From contig CAZTLS010000012.1 in the NCBI GenBank assembly GCA_964614405.1, positions 1,678 through 65,677 on the forward strand: DNA of 64,000 nucleotides. Reading direction: 5' to 3'. The notes beneath the pieces are model-generated. The model saw only the letters and a program-made list of their open reading frames with translations, was not told where the DNA came from and ran no database searches. Origin of the DNA: an uncultured Pleurocapsa sp. Lineage in GTDB: Bacteria > Chloroflexota > Anaerolineae > Aggregatilineales > Phototrophicaceae. Position 1 is the first letter of the stretch. Every line of letters starts with the position of its first letter. Shown here one piece after another: positions 17,555 to 26,337 of this stretch. A program made the position numbers and the translations under genes.

Positions 17555-19240
17555 TCACCGGATGCGGCGGTCAGCGGGCTTGATCGGCGCGGGCGTGGCG
17601 TATCCCCCGGTCAGGCGCTGCATGGCGGCGTAGAAGGCGTCGTCATAGGCGCGCGTGCGGACGACGACGGGCATCGGCACGGCGTGCCCCATGATGATCA
17701 CCTGCTGTTTGGTGTCGAGGCGGCTGAGGACTTCGCGCAAGCCCGCCGCGCCGCTGACGCCCATCAGCACGGCGGTGATGTCACGCTCGTTATCCAGCAG
17801 CGCCGTCACGCGCGTCCCGATCTGGCTCATCACTTCCTCGTCGATGCCGCTCGGTCGCTGATCGACCACCAGCAGCGTCACCTTGTACTTGCGCAGTTCA
17901 CGGGCGATGATGCCGAAGGTCGTCTGGTTGGCGATCTTCGGGTCGAGGAATTTGTGCGCCTCTTCGATGACGATCAGCAGCTGCGGCGGTTCGTGCGCCT
18001 TGTCACCCAGCGCTTTCTCCACCCGTTCGATGTACAACTCGTGAATGCGGCGCGTCAGGTAGTTGGCGACCAGCATGTACGCCTCCAGCGAGTTGCCCCA
18101 GCGCCCGAACTCCAGCACCACACTGCGCCCGTTCTCGATGGCGTGCATGATCTGCGCCACGCTGTCGTTCGCTCCATCGCGCGCGAGGAAATGCCATTTC
18201 TCGAAACGCTGAAGCCGCCGCTGAAGCGCCGCCAGCGTGCCGGCGCGGTGCGGCGAGTCCGCTTTGATGGCATCGAACTCGGCTGCCCCGGCGTCGATCA
18301 GCTTCGCCACCCAGCGCGCGCCCCATTCCTTGCGGAGCATCCGCGCCGCGTCGAGCATCGCGTCGGACAGGTTCATGGTCACGCGCAGGCTTTCGAGGTC
18401 TTCCGGTTCGATCTCGTCATAGCCGATCTGCACGTCAAAATCGCTCTTGCCGCCGCGCCTGGCAGTCGATTCCGGGTCGAGCGAATACACGACCACCTGA
18501 TCCGCGCCGAGGAGCTGGCGCAAGCCCTTCGCCTGCACGCCGCGTTCATCACTCGCCGCCCAGCCGTAGTCGTTGTGCATGTCGAAGATGAGCGCCACCG
18601 CCTGCTTCTTGGCGATCACGCCCGCCAGCAGCAGCCGTGTCAGGAAGCTCTTGCCCGTGCCGCTCTTGCCGAACACGCCGATCGAGCGCTGCACGAGCGC
18701 TTTCAGGTCGAGATTGATCTGCGTGGCGTCCAGTTCGAGCGGCGAGCCGACGTGGAAATGCGTGGCGTCTTCAGGACCGAACACGGCGTTGACGTCGCCC
18801 GCCGTCGCATCGTAGACCTCCATGAAATGCCCAGGGATGGTCTTGACGGGCTTCGGCTTGCCCGCGTCTTCGCCTTCGCTGTCGATCGAGAGCAGCGGCT
18901 GCACGCTGATCTTGCCGTATGCCGCTGTGCCGCCGTAGACCGCCGCCATGAACGGATCGCTGAAATCGGGCGGGGCAGACTGGATGTCCGGGTTGGTATT
19001 GTCCAGCACTACATCGGTGATCATGCAGAAGAAGCGCTTCTTCTGCCCGCGCACCACCACATAGCGCCCGACGGCGAGCGTTTCGATCGGCACGCCGATG
19101 TCCAGCTTGACCGTCAACCCCTTGCTCAGCGAGCCGCCGACGATCACCCCCAGCCGGAAATCATCCGGGTTGGCGAGGAAGGAATCCCGCCCGCGCGCGA
19201 AAATCTGATCCAGGTCGTATGGCTGATCGCTGTACCCCAT
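17555..19240 (-). CDS. HerA/DUF87-family ATPase (HAS barrel plus P-loop)
   Basis: N-terminal beta-barrel, Walker A GKSGTGKS, FDMHNDYG, Walker B IVIEEAH, ARELRKY, DQRPS. Confidence 0.88.
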   Translation of the reverse strand: MGYSDQPYDLDQIFARGRDSFLANPDDFRLGVIVGGSLSKGLTVKLDIGVPIETLAVGRYVVVRGQKKRFFCMITDVVLDNTNPDIQSAPPDFSDPFMAAVYGGTAAYGKISVQPLLSIDSEGEDAGKPKPVKTIPGHFMEVYDATAGDVNAVFGPEDATHFHVGSPLELDATQINLDLKALVQRSIGVFGKSGTGKSFLTRLLLAGVIAKKQAVALIFDMHNDYGWAASDERGVQAKGLRQLLGADQVVVYSLDPESTARRGGKSDFDVQIGYDEIEPEDLESLRVTMNLSDAMLDAARMLRKEWGARWVAKLIDAGAAEFDAIKADSPHRAGTLAALQRRLQRFEKWHFLARDGANDSVAQIMHAIENGRSVVLEFGRWGNSLEAYMLVANYLTRRIHELYIERVEKALGDKAHEPPQLLIVIEEAHKFLDPKIANQTTFGIIARELRKYKVTLLVVDQRPSGIDEEVMSQIGTRVTALLDNERDITAVLMGVSGAAGLREVLSRLDTKQQVIIMGHAVPMPVVVRTRAYDDAFYAAMQRLTGGYATPAPIKPADRRIR

Positions 19241-19308
19241 GCGCGCGCCCTTTCTATCGATTGCAGACGGTGTGTGAGAACTTCTATTTTAGCACAAAAT
19301 TGTCGTTT

Positions 19309-19336
19309 TTGCAGCGCCCGATTTGTGCGTTATACT
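19309..19336 (+). promoter_or_regulatory. Putative sigma70-type promoter for the small lasso-like ORF
   Basis: TTGCAG-16 nt-TATACT about 30 nt upstream of the ATG at 19366. Confidence 0.55.
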
Positions 19337-19365: not shown

Positions 19366-19551
19366 ATGATGATGAATGATGTATCTTCTGCACCCAGGCA
19401 GGACGAAGTACGACGCATGTGGCACAGCCCGGAACTGGTTGACCTGAGTACACGCGAGACGCAGGGCGGCAGGGTGCTGGGCGCGGTGGAAGGCTCTCCC
19501 ACGCCGGGGCTGGACTTTTCCTATAATCCCAGCCCACCAACGGGAAGCTGA
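19366..19551 (+). CDS. Putative lasso peptide (paeninodin-type) precursor, 61 aa
   Basis: Leader W(-15)xxP(-12)xL(-10)xxL(-7)xxxxT(-2); core starts with G, has Glu9 and ends in Ser; flanked by a promoter and terminator. Confidence 0.7.
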   Translation: MMMNDVSSAPRQDEVRRMWHSPELVDLSTRETQGGRVLGAVEGSPTPGLDFSYNPSPPTGS

Positions 19552-19564
19552 GCAGCGCGCAATG

Positions 19565-19594
19565 AAAAAACGCCCGGCAAACTGCCGGGCGTTT
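19565..19594. terminator. Intrinsic terminator between the peptide ORF and the cold-shock gene
   Basis: AAACGCCCGGCA-AAC-TGCCGGGCGTTT perfect hairpin with an A6 tract. Confidence 0.85.
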
Positions 19595-19621
19595 CAGAAT
19601 GCGTTGTGTGGGAAGGGGAAT

Positions 19622-19834
19622 TTACTGGTTGACCAGCGTGACCGCCGAAGCCTGCTTGCCCTTCTTGCCATCGGTGATCTCGAATTCCACCTTGTCGCCC
19701 TCATTCAGCGAACGGAAACCCTTCGCCTGAATTTCGGAGTAGTGGACGAACAGATCGGGACCGTTTTCCTGGGTGATGAAGCCGTAGCCCTTCTCACTGT
19801 TGAACCACTTGACCGTACCGCGAGTGCGTGCCAT
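19622..19834 (-). CDS. Cold-shock protein (CspA family)
   Basis: [39 protein letters not shown]. Confidence 0.97.
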
Positions 19835-20215
19835 GCTGTGTATCTCCTGAAAAGTGAAGATTTGCTGCTGGTTTTGCTTCTAGCCGGGGCACCACACCTT
19901 CCAACTTTCAGGAGGGTATTGCGGTCTTGCTATCCACCATGGCTAAATCGACATCCAACCACTATGTCGATGTGGTGAAGACACCATGTCTTGCGTATCC
20001 CACATTGCACTTCTATGGTAGGACATATCATGAAAAATGTCCAGATGCTTTGAGCAGAGATCATCGATCCTTAAAATATCGGCGCAGCGCTGAAAAAGCG
20101 GGGATGCAGCCACCCGCCGGGTATTCATTTTCCGCCCGGCGCGGTGGTGATTTTTTGGTACACTTGCGCGCATGATGATCATCAACTCTTTCAACCCATG
20201 AAACGGCAGGCAACC

Positions 20216-21232
20216 ATGACGAAAAAAGGACGCATCCTCACCGGGGATCGCCCTACGGGGCGGATGCACCTGGGGCATTACGTGGGCACGCTGGCGAACC
20301 GCGTGCGGCTTCAGGATGATTACGACTGCTTCTTCATTGTGGCGGACGTGCATACCCTGACCACCCGCCCCGAACGCGAGTCGATCCTTCAGGTGGGCGA
20401 CAACATCCGCCAGATGGTGCTGGATTACCTCAGCGTCGGTATCGACCCGGACAGAAGCACCATCTTCGTGCAGTCCGCCGTCACCGAGACGTATGAACTC
20501 AACCTGATCTTTGAGATGCTGATTAGCGTGGCGCGGCTGGAGCGCGTGCCGAGCCTGAAAGAGATGGCGAACGCCGCCAATATGGAGTCGATGCCGTTCG
20601 GTCTGCTCGGCTACCCCGTCCTGCAGGCGGCGGACATCCTGCTGCCGCGCGCCAACCTCGTCCCGGTGGGCAAGGACAACGAGTCGCACATCGAGGTCTC
20701 GCGCGAGATCGCCAGGCGCTTCAACGGGCTGTACGGCGACGTGTTCCCGATCCCGGATGTGCTGATCGGCGATGTGCCGACGCTGGTGGGCACAGACGGG
20801 CAGGCGAAGATGAGCAAATCGCTGAACAACGGCATCTTCCTGAGCGACGACGCCAGAACGGTGACCGAGAAGGTGCGCGGTATGTATACCGACCCGAACC
20901 GCATCCGCGCCGACATTCCTGGGCGCGTCGAGGGCAACCCGGTCTTCATCTACCACGATGCCTTCAACCCGAACGTCGATGAAGTGAACGACCTGAAAGA
21001 CCGCTACCAGCGCGGCGCGGTCGGCGATGTCGAGGTCAAGAAGAAGCTGGCAGCAGCGATCAACGCCTTCCTCGAACCGATGCGCGAGCGGCGCGCCCGC
21101 TATGAGGCACAGCCGGGGATCGTCGAGGATATTCTGGTCGCCGGGACGGAGCGCGCACAGGCGATCGCCCGTGAGACGATGGCGATGGTGCGCGATGCGA
21201 TGGGGTTGTATCGCCTGCCCACGCGCGGGTAA
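20216..21232 (+). CDS. trpS: Tryptophanyl-tRNA synthetase
   Basis: [14 protein letters not shown] (HIGH-like), [22 protein letters not shown]. Confidence 0.97.
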
Positions 21233-21471
21233 CCCGATCATTCCCGGATGTGGACGCGGGGGCGTGACGGTTTGCGTCCCCGCCCTGACCGCGCCGCCAT
21301 TCCCCCCACGCGCCACCCTCTTTACAGACTGTGTTATAATGACAAAAGCAGAAGCCGGCTTTGCGCTGTGCTTGAAAATTGCCCCCAAAATTCTTCTTTT
21401 CGACCGTTTAACGTATTCACGAGAAAGGATAACGGCTGGCACGGCGGCTTTGCCGTTCCAGAAAAAAACAT

Positions 21472-23139
21472 ATGGCAAAGAAATCAGCGACCAAACTCCG
21501 CATCATCCCGCTGGGCGGGTGTGGAGAGATCGGCAAGAACATGACGGTGATCGAATATGGCGGCGACGCCGTGATCATCGACACCGGAATTATGTTCCCC
21601 TCTAACGACATGCTCGGCGTCGATTACATCATCCCCGACTTCCGCTACCTCCTCGAACGACGCGACCTGAAAATTCACGGCATCCTCTACACACACGGGC
21701 ACGAAGACCACACCGGCGCGGTGGCACACGTCATCGAGTCGCTGCACGGCATCCCGATCCACGCCACGCCGATGACCGCTGCCCTGCTGGAGGTCAAGCT
21801 GCGCGATGCGCGGCTGCTGGGCGAAACACAGCTCAATATCTTCAAGCCGGGTGCGGATTTTCAGGTCGGTCCGTTCCGCGTCGAGAGCTTCCACGTCACG
21901 CACAGCATCCCGGACTGCGTCGGCTTTGGCATCACCACGCCGCACGGCTTGATCGTGCATACCGGCGATTACAAGTTCGACCACACGCCGATCGACGGCA
22001 AGCGCACCGACTATGCCAAACTCGCCGAATTTTCGCGGCGGGGCGTGCTGCTGATGATGGGCGACAGCACCAATTCCGAACGCGCAGGCTGGACGCAGTC
22101 TGAGCAGGTGGTGGCGAAAGCGTTCGATGATATCTTCCGCAAGGCGACCGGGCGCATCATCGTCGCCACCTTCGCCTCGCACATCGCCCGCGTGCAGCAG
22201 GTGGCGCTGCTGGCCAAGCGCTATGGGCGCAGGCTGGCGATCGCCGGGCACAGCATGACGGAGAACGTCAAGACGGCGCGGCGGCTGGGCGTGCTGGAGA
22301 TTGATGAAGACACTCTGGTTGACCTGACGCGCATCAACAGCGTGCCCCCGCACGAGCTGACGATCATGGCGACCGGGTCGCAGGGGGAACCGTCGGCGGT
22401 GCTGGGTCGGCTGGCGCGTGGGCAGCATCGCAGTCTCGATGTCATTCCTGGCGACACGATCGTCGTCTCGGCGCACACCATCCCCGGTAACGAGGAAGAG
22501 GTCAGTCACACGATCAACAAGCTCTTCCAGCGCGGTGCCGAAGTGATCTACGACTCGATCGCCCCGGTGCATGTCTCCGGGCACGCCTGCCAGGATGAGA
22601 TGAAGCTGATGATGAGCCTGGTGCAGCCGAAATTCTTCATCCCTGTGCATGGCGAACTGCGCCATCTGAAGACGAACGCCTCACTCGCCACGCAGATGGG
22701 CATCCCCGCCGCCAACATCGCGGTGGTCGAGAACGGCACGATCGTCGAGGTAGACAAGACGAGCATCCGCGTGGGCGAACGCATCCCAGGCGGCTATGTC
22801 TTCGTCGATGGCAGCGGTGTGGGCGACATCGGGCGCACCGTCATCCGCGACCGGGAGATTCTGGCGCGCGACGGCTTCATCATGGTGGTCGTCAATGTCG
22901 ATTCCGGCACGGGCAGGATCATCGGCGAACCGGAGATCATCTCGCGCGGGTTCGTCTATCTGAAAGATGCCGATCGGCTGATCGCCAGCATCCGCCAGAC
23001 GATCGCCGAGACGCTGATGAACGCCCGCGCCTCGCGCAATGGCAAGCGCCGCGAGATGGTGCAGGAAGCGCTGGGCAAGCTGCTCTTCAACGAGACGAAG
23101 CGCCGCCCGATGGTCTTCACCGTCATCAACGAGCGCTGA
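21472..23139 (+). CDS. rnj: Ribonuclease J
   Basis: PLGGCGEIGKNM, THGHEDH, HSIPD, HTGDYKFD, GSQGEP, HVSGHA, PVHGELRH. Confidence 0.97.
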   Translation: MAKKSATKLRIIPLGGCGEIGKNMTVIEYGGDAVIIDTGIMFPSNDMLGVDYIIPDFRYLLERRDLKIHGILYTHGHEDHTGAVAHVIESLHGIPIHATPMTAALLEVKLRDARLLGETQLNIFKPGADFQVGPFRVESFHVTHSIPDCVGFGITTPHGLIVHTGDYKFDHTPIDGKRTDYAKLAEFSRRGVLLMMGDSTNSERAGWTQSEQVVAKAFDDIFRKATGRIIVATFASHIARVQQVALLAKRYGRRLAIAGHSMTENVKTARRLGVLEIDEDTLVDLTRINSVPPHELTIMATGSQGEPSAVLGRLARGQHRSLDVIPGDTIVVSAHTIPGNEEEVSHTINKLFQRGAEVIYDSIAPVHVSGHACQDEMKLMMSLVQPKFFIPVHGELRHLKTNASLATQMGIPAANIAVVENGTIVEVDKTSIRVGERIPGGYVFVDGSGVGDIGRTVIRDREILARDGFIMVVVNVDSGTGRIIGEPEIISRGFVYLKDADRLIASIRQTIAETLMNARASRNGKRREMVQEALGKLLFNETKRRPMVFTVINER

Positions 23140-23152
23140 TCAGCGCCATCCC

Positions 23153-24316
23153 ATGACTGACCGCCCCATCCGCGTGCTGCGGATCATCGCCCGGCTGAAC
23201 GTCGGCGGTCCGGCGCTGCACGTCGCCCTGCTCACCCAGCACCTCAATCCGCCGCTCTCCCCCGCCTACCAGTCGATGCTGGTGGCGGGGCAGGTGGGGG
23301 CAGACGAGGGCGACATGACCTGGTACGCCGAGTCGCTGGGCGTCACGCCGACCATCCTGCCCGATCTGGGGCGCGCGCTGCACCCGCTGCGCGATCTGCG
23401 CGTCATCGCCGCACTCGTCCGCCTGATGCGCCGGTTCAAGCCGGATGTGGTGCATACGCACACCGCCAAAGCGGGGTTCGTCGGGCGGGTAGCGGCGCGC
23501 CTTGCCGGGGTTCCGGCGGTGGTGCATACCTATCACGGGCATGTCTTTCGCGGCTACTTCTCCCCGCTCATGACGCGCGTCTTCCTGACGCTCGAACGGC
23601 TGACCGGGCGCATGACCGACGCCGTGATCACCCTGACGGACGGGCTGGCGCGGGAGATCGCCGACGATTTTCGCGTCGTGCCGCGCAGCCGCATCACCGT
23701 CGTCAGCCTGGGTTTAGACCTGGCGCGTTTCACGCAGACGCCGCGCCACGCCGGGGCATTCCGCGCTGCGCACGGCATTCCGCCGGGCGTCCCGCTCGTC
23801 GGCATCGTCGGGCGGCTCGTGCCGGTCAAAAATCACACCCTTTTTCTGGAAGCGGCAGCACGCCTGCGCCAGAGCGGGGGGGATTACCGTTTCGTGATCG
23901 TCGGCGACGGCGAGATGCGCCAGGCGATCGAGGCGCAGATCGCCGCGCTCGGTCTGGCGGGCTGCACGGTCATCACCGGATGGACGCGCGACCTCGCCCC
24001 GGTCTACAGCGACCTCGATGTCATGGCGCTCACCAGCGTCAACGAAGGGACGCCCGTCACGATCATCGAGGCGCTGGCGGCGGGCTGCCCGGTGGCATCC
24101 ACTGCGGTCGGCGGTGTGCCTGACCTGCTGGAGGGCGGGGCGCTGGGCGCGCTCGCCCCTTCCGGTGACCCGGACGCGGTGGCAGCGGCGATCGCCCGCG
24201 CGCTGACTACCCCGCCCGACCCGGAGCCGATCCGCGCGCGCATTGCCGCGCAGTACAGCATTGAACGGCTGGCGCGCGATCTCGACGAGGTGTATCGGCG
24301 GGCGCTGGGGCGCTGA
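23153..24316 (+). CDS. Glycosyltransferase family 4
   Basis: IIARLNVGGPA, HTHTAKAG, GRLVPVKNH, NEGTPVTIIEALAAG. Confidence 0.92.
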   Translation: MTDRPIRVLRIIARLNVGGPALHVALLTQHLNPPLSPAYQSMLVAGQVGADEGDMTWYAESLGVTPTILPDLGRALHPLRDLRVIAALVRLMRRFKPDVVHTHTAKAGFVGRVAARLAGVPAVVHTYHGHVFRGYFSPLMTRVFLTLERLTGRMTDAVITLTDGLAREIADDFRVVPRSRITVVSLGLDLARFTQTPRHAGAFRAAHGIPPGVPLVGIVGRLVPVKNHTLFLEAAARLRQSGGDYRFVIVGDGEMRQAIEAQIAALGLAGCTVITGWTRDLAPVYSDLDVMALTSVNEGTPVTIIEALAAGCPVASTAVGGVPDLLEGGALGALAPSGDPDAVAAAIARALTTPPDPEPIRARIAAQYSIERLARDLDEVYRRALGR

Positions 24317-24361
24317 CCAGAGTGTGTCTGCAAACTCGTTTCTGACATATGTTTGCCACCA

Positions 24362-24441
24362 ACCTCACCCCGGAAACCTGGCGGTTTCCTGCCCCTCTCC
24401 ATCGGTGAGGGGCGGTTGAGCGCAGCGAAACGGGGTGAGGT
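24362..24441. repeat. 80-bp palindromic intergenic repeat (REP/MITE-like), copy 1
   Basis: ACCTCACCCC...GGGGTGAGGT terminal inverted repeats and internal hairpins; reverse complement of the copies at 35757 and 45127. Confidence 0.9.
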
Positions 24442-24462
24442 CGGAGCATTTGCAGACGGACC

Positions 24463-26337
24463 TTAGCGCACGCGCACCGCCTCGATGATCTGCGCCGCCA
24501 GGTCATAGCGCCCGAACGCCGGGATGATGTACGCCCCGCGCACATGCTGGCGGATGGCGAGCAGCATCTCGGTGGCGATCCGCACGCCCTCGGCGGGTGC
24601 GTCATCGCCCGCGTCTTCGATGCGCTTCAGCACCGCCTGCGGGATGCTGATGCCAGGCACTTCGTTGTTCAGGAACGTGGCATGGCGCAGGCTGTAGAGT
24701 GGCATGACGCCGAGCAGGACGGGCAGGCGCAGCGCTTCCCCGGTGATCGCCTGATAGCGCGCCAGAAATGCCTCGACCCTGCCAGGCTCGAACACCGGCT
24801 GCCCCAGTGCGAAGTCCGCCCCGGCGTCGATCTTCTTCCGCAGCACGTCGATCTCCTTGTCCGGGTCGTCCGCGCCCATGTTGAGCGCACAGCCGATCGT
24901 GAAGCTGGTCGGCTGCCCGATCGAGTTGCCCGCCTGATCGACGCCCTGATTGAGGCGGTGCTTGATCAGCCGGATCAAACCGGACGGCACGATGTCGTAC
25001 TGATCCATCGCTTCGGGGTAATCGCCGATGCGCGTCGGATCGCCCATGACCACGAACACGTTGCGGATGCTCAGCGCGTGCGCGCCCAGCAGGTCGCCCT
25101 GCACGCGCAGCATGTTGCGCCCGCGCACCGGGAAGTGCAGGATCGTCTCCAGCCCCAGCCGATTTTGCAGCACGCTGCACGCCGCCCAGGGGCTGACGCG
25201 CATCCGCGCCGTCGGGCTGTCGGCGATGTTCAGCACGTCCGCCCCGGCATCGCGCAGCAGCGACGCCGAGTCGATCATGCGGTCGAGATTGTGCGAGCGG
25301 GGCGGGTTCATCTCGACGCTGAACAGGAAGCCGCTTTCGGCGCTCAGCCTGTTCGCCAGTTCAGACGGGCGTTCCGGCGCGGCGTCTTCGCCGCTGACCA
25401 CGCGGATGCTCACCTGAGGCAGCGGGGGCAGCGGGCGCGCCGGGTCATCGATGGCGGCGCGCATGGCGGCGATGTGATCGGGCGTCGTGCCGCAGCACCC
25501 GCCGACCACGCACGCGCCGATCGCCCGGAAGAGCAGGGCGTTGTCGGCAAAATAGTCGGTCGTCGCCGGATACATGGTGCGTCCGCCGACGGTGTAGGGG
25601 AAGCCGGCATTGGGCATGGCGGAGAAGCGTGCGCCCGGCGCGGCTTCGCGCATTTGCAGCAGCACGCGCGCGATCTGCGCCGGACCGCCCGAACAGTTGA
25701 CGCCGACCACGTCCGCGCCCGCCTCCAGCAGCCGCCGTGCCACCGCGCCCGGCAGGTGACCGGAGACGGTGCGGTCGTCGCGGGTGAAGGTCATGTGGGC
25801 GATGATCGGCGTGCCTGGTGCAGCGGCGCGCGCCGCTTCGACGCCGGCGACGATCTCGTCCAGCGAGGTGAACGTCTCGAAGAGCAGCACATCCACCCCA
25901 CTGCCGACGAGCGCGCGAATCTGTTCGTCGAAGATGGCGTGCGCGTCTTCCGGCTTCAGCCGACCATACGGCTGGATGCCCGCACCGAGCGGACCGATCG
26001 CTCCGGCGATGTACACCCGGTCGGCGGCGCGGGCAGCGGCGATGGCAGCACGGGCGCGCGCCACGCCCGCCGCGTTGATCGCCGCGACCTGATCCTCCAG
26101 ACCGTGTTCTTCCAGGCGCAGGCGGTTCGCGCCGAAGGTGTTGGTCTCGATCAGTTCCGCCCCGGCGTCGATGTAGTCGCGGTGCAGCGACTCGATCAGT
26201 TCCGGTTTGGTCAGGTTCTGGGCGTCGAAGCAGGAATCGAGCGCCGCGCCGTGCGCGTGCAGCAGCGTGCCCATCGCGCCATCGGCAAGCAGGGGCGAGT
26301 CATCCTTCAGCCTGGTGAGGAAGGGGATTGCGGGCAT
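24463..26337 (-). CDS. yitJ: Bifunctional homocysteine S-methyltransferase / methylenetetrahydrofolate reductase (YitJ-like)
   Basis: DGAMGT, ETNTFGAN, GVNC, PNAG, GGCCGTTP, followed by MTHFR domain (NIADSP, RGRN, GDP). Confidence 0.92.
   Translation of the reverse strand: MPAIPFLTRLKDDSPLLADGAMGTLLHAHGAALDSCFDAQNLTKPELIESLHRDYIDAGAELIETNTFGANRLRLEEHGLEDQVAAINAAGVARARAAIAAARAADRVYIAGAIGPLGAGIQPYGRLKPEDAHAIFDEQIRALVGSGVDVLLFETFTSLDEIVAGVEAARAAAPGTPIIAHMTFTRDDRTVSGHLPGAVARRLLEAGADVVGVNCSGGPAQIARVLLQMREAAPGARFSAMPNAGFPYTVGGRTMYPATTDYFADNALLFRAIGACVVGGCCGTTPDHIAAMRAAIDDPARPLPPLPQVSIRVVSGEDAAPERPSELANRLSAESGFLFSVEMNPPRSHNLDRMIDSASLLRDAGADVLNIADSPTARMRVSPWAACSVLQNRLGLETILHFPVRGRNMLRVQGDLLGAHALSIRNVFVVMGDPTRIGDYPEAMDQYDIVPSGLIRLIKHRLNQGVDQAGNSIGQPTSFTIGCALNMGADDPDKEIDVLRKKIDAGADFALGQPVFEPGRVEAFLARYQAITGEALRLPVLLGVMPLYSLRHATFLNNEVPGISIPQAVLKRIEDAGDDAPAEGVRIATEMLLAIRQHVRGAYIIPAFGRYDLAAQIIEAVRVR

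Follow-up and report, generated by a model that had tools for sequence, protein, structure and literature searches.

A stand-alone paeninodin-like lasso precursor gene, probably matured in trans by an enzyme cluster on another contig, in an Anaerolineae genome

The precursor gene and its neighbourhood

The window (i.e., the whole stretch of 64,000 nucleotides that was analysed) lies on contig C12, and the short ORF under study is placed between a divergent herA gene and a convergent cold-shock gene. The features of the locus are:

17555-19240, minus strand: herA (HerA-like ATPase), divergent neighbour; Pfam DUF87 (1.9e-28) and HAS-barrel; unrelated to RiPP maturation
19309-19336, plus strand: sigma-70-like promoter match, TTGCAG (19309-19314), 16-nt spacer, TATACT (19331-19336); consensus match only
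19366-19551, plus strand: precursor ORF, 61 aa plus stop, with the translation MMMNDVSSAPRQDEVRRMWHSPELVDLSTRETQGGRVLGAVEGSPTPGLDFSYNPSPPTGS
19366-19464, plus strand: predicted leader peptide, 33 aa counted from the first ATG, with W-15, P-12, L-10 and L-7 (RRE-binding motif) and Thr-2
19465-19548, plus strand: predicted core, 28 aa, GGRVLGAVEGSPTPGLDFSYNPSPPTGS; Gly1 and Glu9 are ring candidates, F18 and Y20 plug candidates, and Ser28 a candidate phosphorylation site
19567-19595: GC-rich hairpin on which the precursor and csp genes converge, with U6 after it on the minus strand and only UUU on the plus strand
19622-19834, minus strand: csp (cold-shock protein), convergent neighbour; Pfam CSD (4.7e-30); owns the U-tract side of the hairpin

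The initial annotation had quoted a 61-aa ORF with no entry of its own in the ORF track. Translation of 19366-19551 gave exactly that sequence, and the ORF is not listed separately because it was absorbed as the tail of a 110-aa frame that starts at ATG 19219 and overlaps the start of the divergent herA. An SD-like GAAAG ends only 2 nt 5′ of the first ATG of the ORF, which is a poor spacing, and because of this the true start may be the second or the third ATG (19369 or 19372). The promoter that had been proposed, TTGCAG-16-TATACT, is present in the letters, and our consensus scan of a 900-bp region returned it with a one-base shift, as TTTGCA-17-TATACT (19308-19336); the scan gave 1 site versus 0.3 expected in shuffles, which is weak evidence. 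The hairpin, which had been described as a perfect terminator belonging to the precursor, is indeed strong, with fold energies of -33.6 kcal/mol on the plus strand (z -5.97 versus shuffles) and -28.8 kcal/mol on the minus strand (z -5.01). Because its U6 tract lies on the minus strand, the hairpin belongs mainly to the convergent csp gene as its terminator; it is common to both genes, but better suited to csp.

The Pfam matches of the flanking genes agree with their earlier naming as herA and a cold-shock gene, and a TrpRS gene is a further neighbour. As had been stated for the 64 kb, no lasso cyclase, B1/B2 or kinase is at hand: the whole-genome family searches (kinase, PqqD, Transglut_core3 and Asn_synthase) placed none on contig C12, and the ORF lies neither within nor beside a B/C cluster, where a lasso precursor gene is expected. 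An insertion between conserved neighbours was considered, and the comparison gives no basis for such a scenario; in all 29 genus relatives examined the region upstream of herA differs and contains neither csp nor a precursor, so that, in this comparison, it is a synteny breakpoint in 29/29. The herA upstream regions of the window and of genome G186 have a short stretch in common (19280-19305, TTCTATTTTAGCACAAAA) and differ completely beyond it; this stretch, probably the herA promoter region, marks the edge of the precursor unit.

When the precursor peptide was searched on its own, no model of Pfam or NCBIfam matched at E<=10, and a word-based homolog search returned zero candidates. The window copy was absent from a collection of gene calls comprising 15 billion proteins (exact look-up, five alternative start forms), and searches of 52 genus genomes, of metagenome contigs and of viral contigs gave no ortholog of it.

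Register of the leader and the core

Counting from a cut after T-Q, the leader residues W-15, P-12, L-10, L-7 and T-2 and the core residues G1, E9, F18, Y20 and S28 fall exactly where the initial annotation had placed them. The leader carries WHSPEL at -15 to -10, in agreement with the RRE-binding motif (Y/W)xxPx(L/V/I) (PMC13381572, PMC10368454). The predicted cut, T-Q/G-G, leaves a penultimate Thr and a small residue at core position 1, and Glu9 of the window copy is within positions 7-9, where the Asp or Glu of the macrolactam is expected. In the precursor family described in the next section T and G2 are invariant, and core position 1 is G, S or A.

In the canonical lasso register the motif is found at Y-17/P-14/L-12 (PMC10368454), whereas in the window precursor W is at -15, with P-12 and L-10, i.e., two residues nearer the cut. 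This is the paeninodin-like position: according to Popov et al. 2026 (PMC13381572), nearly all paeninodin-like leaders have W at -15, a residue that their RRE prefers, and PbaA has W-15. The paeninodin precursor PadeA (MKKQYSKPSLEVLDVHQTM, followed after the cut by AGPGTSTPD...YDS; PMC11594732), counted in the same way, has Y-15/P-12/L-10/L-7/T-2, its ring acid at position 9 and Ser as the last residue, and so agrees in register with the window precursor. The canonical Y-17 register was also tried on the window peptide and rejected; it would cut after G-G, so that the core would begin with Arg and Gly would be at -2. In the paeninodin type, the linear precursor receives a phosphate on its C-terminal Ser from a HprK-like kinase before it folds, and some of the clusters contain sulfotransferase genes (PMC8498205). 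The window peptide ends in Ser28 and a HprK-like kinase is encoded in the genome (see below), and phosphorylation of this residue is predicted. Homology to characterised members or to curated precursor models was not detectable for the window ORF, and PadeA scored 1.7 bits against the HMM of the family, which is not significant; because of this, the paeninodin-like assignment rests on the motif register and on the enzymes. Read in this way, the sequence supports the window peptide as a new member of the paeninodin-like lasso precursors.

A small family of unannotated precursors

The search for paralogous precursors that had been suggested was productive: two were found in the same genome (C80:7386-7577 and C60:713-898), and genome G001, of the same genus, carries three tandem family copies. 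A profile of these six sequences (the three of the window's genome and the three of G001) was run against 1.8 billion representative proteins, and about 22 further short peptides (43-92 aa) of the same build were recovered. The named members are all "hypothetical", and one comes from a Chloroflexota MAG. Some long repetitive proteins (P0009, P0010 and P0021) also scored in this search and were considered as multi-leader precursors; they were rejected, as they are unrelated repeats. As an independent test, an HMM was built from 22 members of other genomes only, and the window's genome was searched with it in six frames (82,935 segments). The window ORF was retrieved with E=1.6e-11 and the two paralogs with 8e-14 and 6e-11, and the next match, a non-family one, had E=0.46. 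On this profile evidence the window ORF is more than a chance frame, and is a genuine member of a small unannotated precursor family.

The columns with W, P, L, L, S, T, G2, the Glu and the C-terminal Ser show no variation in the six-sequence alignment, and the C-terminal Ser was also present in 19 of the 22 short database relatives. The core starts with (G/S/A)1-G2. The lack of conservation that the initial annotation had named as an argument against its reading was thus not observed, and the W-P-L-T leader, (G/S)1, the ring Glu and the C-terminal Ser are all conserved in the relatives. The ring Glu is located at core position 8 or 9: it is Glu9 in the window and C80 copies and Glu8 in most relatives, which suggests either that the cyclase makes both ring sizes or that the cut in the two Glu9 copies falls one residue further on, which would give G1-E8 and put Thr at -3. 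The core of the window copy is the most divergent in the family, and YNP replaces the common YGP. The leader residues that the window and C80 copies have in common use different synonymous codons, as expected for selection on the peptide.

A lasso cluster without a precursor on contig C16

With the proteins that adjoin the G001 precursors as tblastn queries, and with family searches of the window's genome, the following cluster was located on contig C16:

18801-19700: HprK-like kinase; Hpr_kinase_C/HprK_rel_A, P-loop GASGAGKS
19697-20572: sulfotransferase; Sulfotransfer_1
20566-20850: B1 (stand-alone RRE); lasso_PqqD_Bac NF033536, 92 bits (cutoff 80), and Pfam PqqD above cutoff
about 20859-21302: B2 (cysteine protease); lasso_biosyn_B2 NF033537, 72 bits (cutoff 33), and Pfam Transglut_core3 above cutoff
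21313-23214: cyclase (Asn-synthetase-like); NF033535 as best match, 309 bits, below the cutoff of 525; SGGIDS motif
23211-25070: MsbA-like ABC exporter

The cyclase passes the Pfam Asn_synthase cutoff and, used as a query against genome contigs, gave only distant proteobacterial and cyanobacterial matches. The cyclase and exporter genes overlap by 4 bp, and the kinase gene is only 90 bp from an upstream gene for a PMT_2-family (mannosyltransferase-like) membrane protein. No precursor was detected on C16 with the family HMM or with a loose lasso-precursor pattern, and by its gene content this is a complete, apparently intact lasso cluster without a precursor gene of its own. The initial annotation had proposed a genome-wide search for the cyclase, B1, B2 and the kinase, and had regarded a genome devoid of B/C enzymes as fatal to its reading; all four were found here, in a single cluster. 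Judging from the distances to the contig ends, at least about 40 kb lie between the window precursor and the C16 cluster. By its RNase J homologs the genome belongs to the Chloroflexota/Anaerolineae. It consists of 147 binned contigs, with 3.5% contamination, and the statement that both loci come from the same cell rests on binning; the tetranucleotide distance from the bin centroid is at the 46th percentile for C12 and at the 2nd for C16, i.e., the composition of both is typical of the bin.

Further lasso-like enzyme fragments were observed at C72:12-2107 (B2 and cyclase), C82:3415-6201 (cyclase and kinase), C53:24064-25576 (PqqD, kinase and two glycosyltransferases), C101:270-1280 (a lone kinase) and C29:13793-14326 (a lone B2-like gene). 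Contig ends truncate some of these loci, and orthologous pairs are present in G001, G179 and G186 as well; no precursor was found near any of them with a loose lasso-precursor regex.

Two other unlinked copies

The two paralogs of the window precursor lie on contigs other than C12 and C16:

C80:7386-7577 (L025), minus strand: MQPVIQQPDETRKHWHAPRLINLSTRETESGTIPYYVE...PTVS, with the Cys-containing tail TTTCGCPTVS; divergent from an OsmC gene
C60:713-898 (L033), minus strand: MSDQ...RAWEAPRLIALSGTRTESGDLAPSE...SPTS; antisense inside a prophage tail module

JGI metagenome contigs, the longest of 446 kb, carry an ortholog of the C80 copy. In the one place examined (a 217-kb contig; L034:10001-10267) the neighbour was again OsmC, and no lasso genes were present within 10 kb on either side. 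At least this orphan arrangement is therefore stable, and not an accident of assembly. The C60 copy has a tail-completion/HK97-gp10-like gene on one side and other tail genes (major tail, Dit) on the other, and a 95%-identical 1.7-kb stretch of this locus is filed as a viral contig in IMG/VR. The core of the precursor in the IMG/VR copy (L077:805-989) appears frameshifted. A comparison of the sequences that precede the C16 kinase and the three precursors gave no common regulatory motif other than generic -10-like boxes.

Arrangement of precursors and enzymes across the genus

The precursor family was found in 6 of the 52 genus genomes; a sample of 150 further genomes from the order gave a weak match in 2. 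The five family-bearing genus members other than the window's genome have their precursors next to orthologous enzymes, with the gene orders given below (A, precursor; K, kinase; ST, sulfotransferase; C, cyclase; D, exporter):

G189: A-A-K-ST-B1-B2-C-D
G186 (closest relative, HerA 88%): K-ST-B1-B2-C-A-A(pseudo)-D
G194: K-B1-B2-C-A
G001 and G179: A(2-3)-K-ST-B1-B2

The tandem precursors of G001, G179 and G189 immediately precede the orthologous kinase (55-59% identity), those of G186 are between the cyclase and the exporter, and the precursor of G194 follows the cyclase. C and D, which flank the precursors in G186, are the genes that overlap by 4 bp in the window's genome. The second tandem precursor of G186 (C28:60417-60590, L070) contains an in-frame TAG in its leader and is probably a decaying copy. 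The clusters of G001 and G179 are split at a different point than that of the window's genome: their cyclases (C194:10125-11996, L075, and C331:20172-22058, L076, about 60% identity) stand alone among unrelated genes on another contig. Among the genomes compared, the window's genome alone combines a cluster that has no precursor in cis with three precursors, each on a different contig away from the cluster. As far as gene order on these contigs tells, the lasso pathway is repeatedly broken up in this genus, which makes an action in trans credible.

Maturation in trans and its alternatives

We consider it probable that the window ORF is the precursor of a paeninodin-like class II lasso peptide, expressed from its own small unit and matured in trans by the C16 enzymes. 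The genomic basis of this reading is the membership in the family, the apparently intact cognate cluster that has no precursor, and the adjacency of family and cluster in the relatives, and from these we infer the expression, every enzymatic step and the lasso topology. The proposal of the initial annotation, an orphan precursor served by a distant cluster, thus gains genomic support, as C16 holds a cluster that lacks a precursor and the precursors of sister species are directly beside the orthologous cluster. It seems that a single cluster of this genome is supplied in trans by precursor genes at scattered sites. In such a scheme the window precursor would be made from its own small transcription unit, and its leader, through W-15xxP-12xL-10xxL-7, would bind the stand-alone RRE protein B1 of C16. 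The HprK-like kinase would then phosphorylate the C-terminal Ser28 of the still-linear precursor, and the adjacent sulfotransferase may add a further group. Cleavage after Thr-2/Gln-1 would be carried out by the B2 cysteine protease, the cyclase would close the ring around the threaded tail by linking the amine of Gly1 with the side chain of Glu9, and the ABC exporter would secrete the product. One point against maturation in trans is that a single cyclase would have to accept 8- and 9-residue rings, because the window copy has Glu9 and the usual residue is Glu8.

The same Glu9 spacing, together with the most divergent core, would also fit a stranded duplicate, silent or decaying, that belongs to the family by descent and is not expressed or not accepted by the enzymes. 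The window copy is unique to its genome, the SD spacing is weak, and G186 has the sister copy with a TAG in its leader, probably a decaying one. However, the frame is intact and every residue that is invariant in the family is retained, Thr-2, the ring Glu and the terminal Ser among them; the conserved residues differ from those of the C80 paralog at synonymous sites, a promoter-like site is present upstream, and the three unlinked copies are the only candidate substrates of the C16 cluster. We therefore regard this possibility as rather unlikely. It is improbable, too, that the peptide is a substrate of one of the partial lasso-like loci (C72, C82, C53, C101 or C29) and not of C16. These loci exist and are likewise devoid of recognisable adjacent precursors, but they are incomplete or cut by contig ends and, wherever the family is enzyme-linked in the relatives, it adjoins the C16-type kinase, B1 and B2 (34-61% identity), and not the paralogs (27-41%).

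The arrangement in G001 and G179, in which precursors, kinase, sulfotransferase, B1 and B2 have no adjacent cyclase, could be taken to mean that the peptide is matured without ring closure, by the kinase, the RRE protein and the peptidase only, to a linear phosphorylated or sulfated product of the LPP kind; the kinase and the [Y/W]xxP leader are indeed common to LPPs (PMC13381572). Yet LPP leaders have YxxPxVLxHQ and go with a SpI-type peptidase, and the Y/W identity discriminates the two RREs; here W-15 and B2 are found, the orthologous cyclase is kept in 6 of 6 genomes and the ring Glu is invariant in the six-sequence alignment, so that a linear fate seems very improbable. Hardly any weight is left for a chance ORF, or for a binning artefact with C12 and C16 derived from different organisms. 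The bin is fragmented, with the 3.5% contamination noted above, and its high GC yields many spurious ORFs, but against this stand the E value of 1.6e-11 with the independent family profile, the position of C12 and C16 (46th and 2nd percentile) relative to the bin centroid, and the presence of both family and cluster in the closest relatives by HerA (G186, 88%; G001, 85%).

Maturation of the window precursor in trans could be part of a wider, hub-and-spoke lasso system, a reading that we put forward tentatively and consider doubtful. Here the precursor-less cluster would serve dispersed, diversifying stand-alone precursors, one of them on a prophage, so that the pathway in the genus would be a trans-acting network and not an operon; as the cyclase itself is unlinked in sister species, the network would embrace the whole pathway in this Anaerolineae genus. 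If this were true, a phage would supply a substrate to the lasso machinery of its host. RODEO, antiSMASH and even "precursor-centric" lasso mining assume proximity of precursor and enzymes. In neighbourhood-based mining C16 would score as precursor-less, and three real precursors, to none of which any source gives a name, would be invisible. Were maturation in trans confirmed, lasso peptides tailored by a kinase and a sulfotransferase would have a further source in the Chloroflexota/Anaerolineae, and it would have to be asked why a substrate gene is carried on a prophage.

Comparison with known systems

The LPP system (lppA-K-B-S-D-N; Popov et al. 2026, PMC13381572) has in common with the present one a HprK-like kinase, a discrete RRE, a MsbA-like exporter and the [Y/W]xxP motif. 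It differs in its Y motif with the HQxIxFET extension, in the SpI-type peptidase and in the lack of a cyclase, where W, B2 and a cyclase are found here; the full LPP precursor pattern (YxxPxVLxHQxIxFETxxS, with a SpI-type leader peptidase and no cyclase) is not that of the window precursor and C16. The Bsf system of Bradymonas sediminis (PMC10368454) also has a kinase-tailored lasso precursor whose processing depends on B1, but with Y-17/P-14/L-12, Ile-2, phosphorylation at Ser3 and the precursor inside the cluster.

The paeninodin system of Paenibacillus dendritiformis (PadeA-K-B1-B2-C-D; also PbaA/PbaB1) shares the aromatic residue at -15 with P-12, L-10, L-7 and T-2, the 9-residue ring position and the C-terminal Ser (PMC11594732). 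Also shared with the paeninodin-like systems are the HprK-like kinase, the split B1/B2, the cyclase and the ABC exporter, W-15 being typical of them (PMC13381572), and the C16 B1 passes the NCBIfam model lasso_PqqD_Bac. In contrast to them, the precursors lie here outside the cluster, the host phylum is Chloroflexota and not Bacillota or Proteobacteria, the ring acid is Glu and not Asp, and there is no nucleotidyltransferase, a sulfotransferase being placed between the kinase and B1.

No described case of fully unlinked lasso precursors was found in the searchable literature, whose coverage is incomplete. In another RiPP class, the prochlorosins, which are class II lanthipeptides, many precursors are scattered over the genome and one enzyme set (ProcM) acts on them in trans. 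The chemistry is different and, in the present genome, there are only three precursors, with recognition by a separate B1; the two systems coincide in a conserved leader, hypervariable cores and dispersed single-unit precursors. If maturation in trans is confirmed, the dispersed-substrate logic of the prochlorosins would be documented for lasso peptides. What appears to be new here is the unusual, fully unlinked organisation within a known RiPP class.
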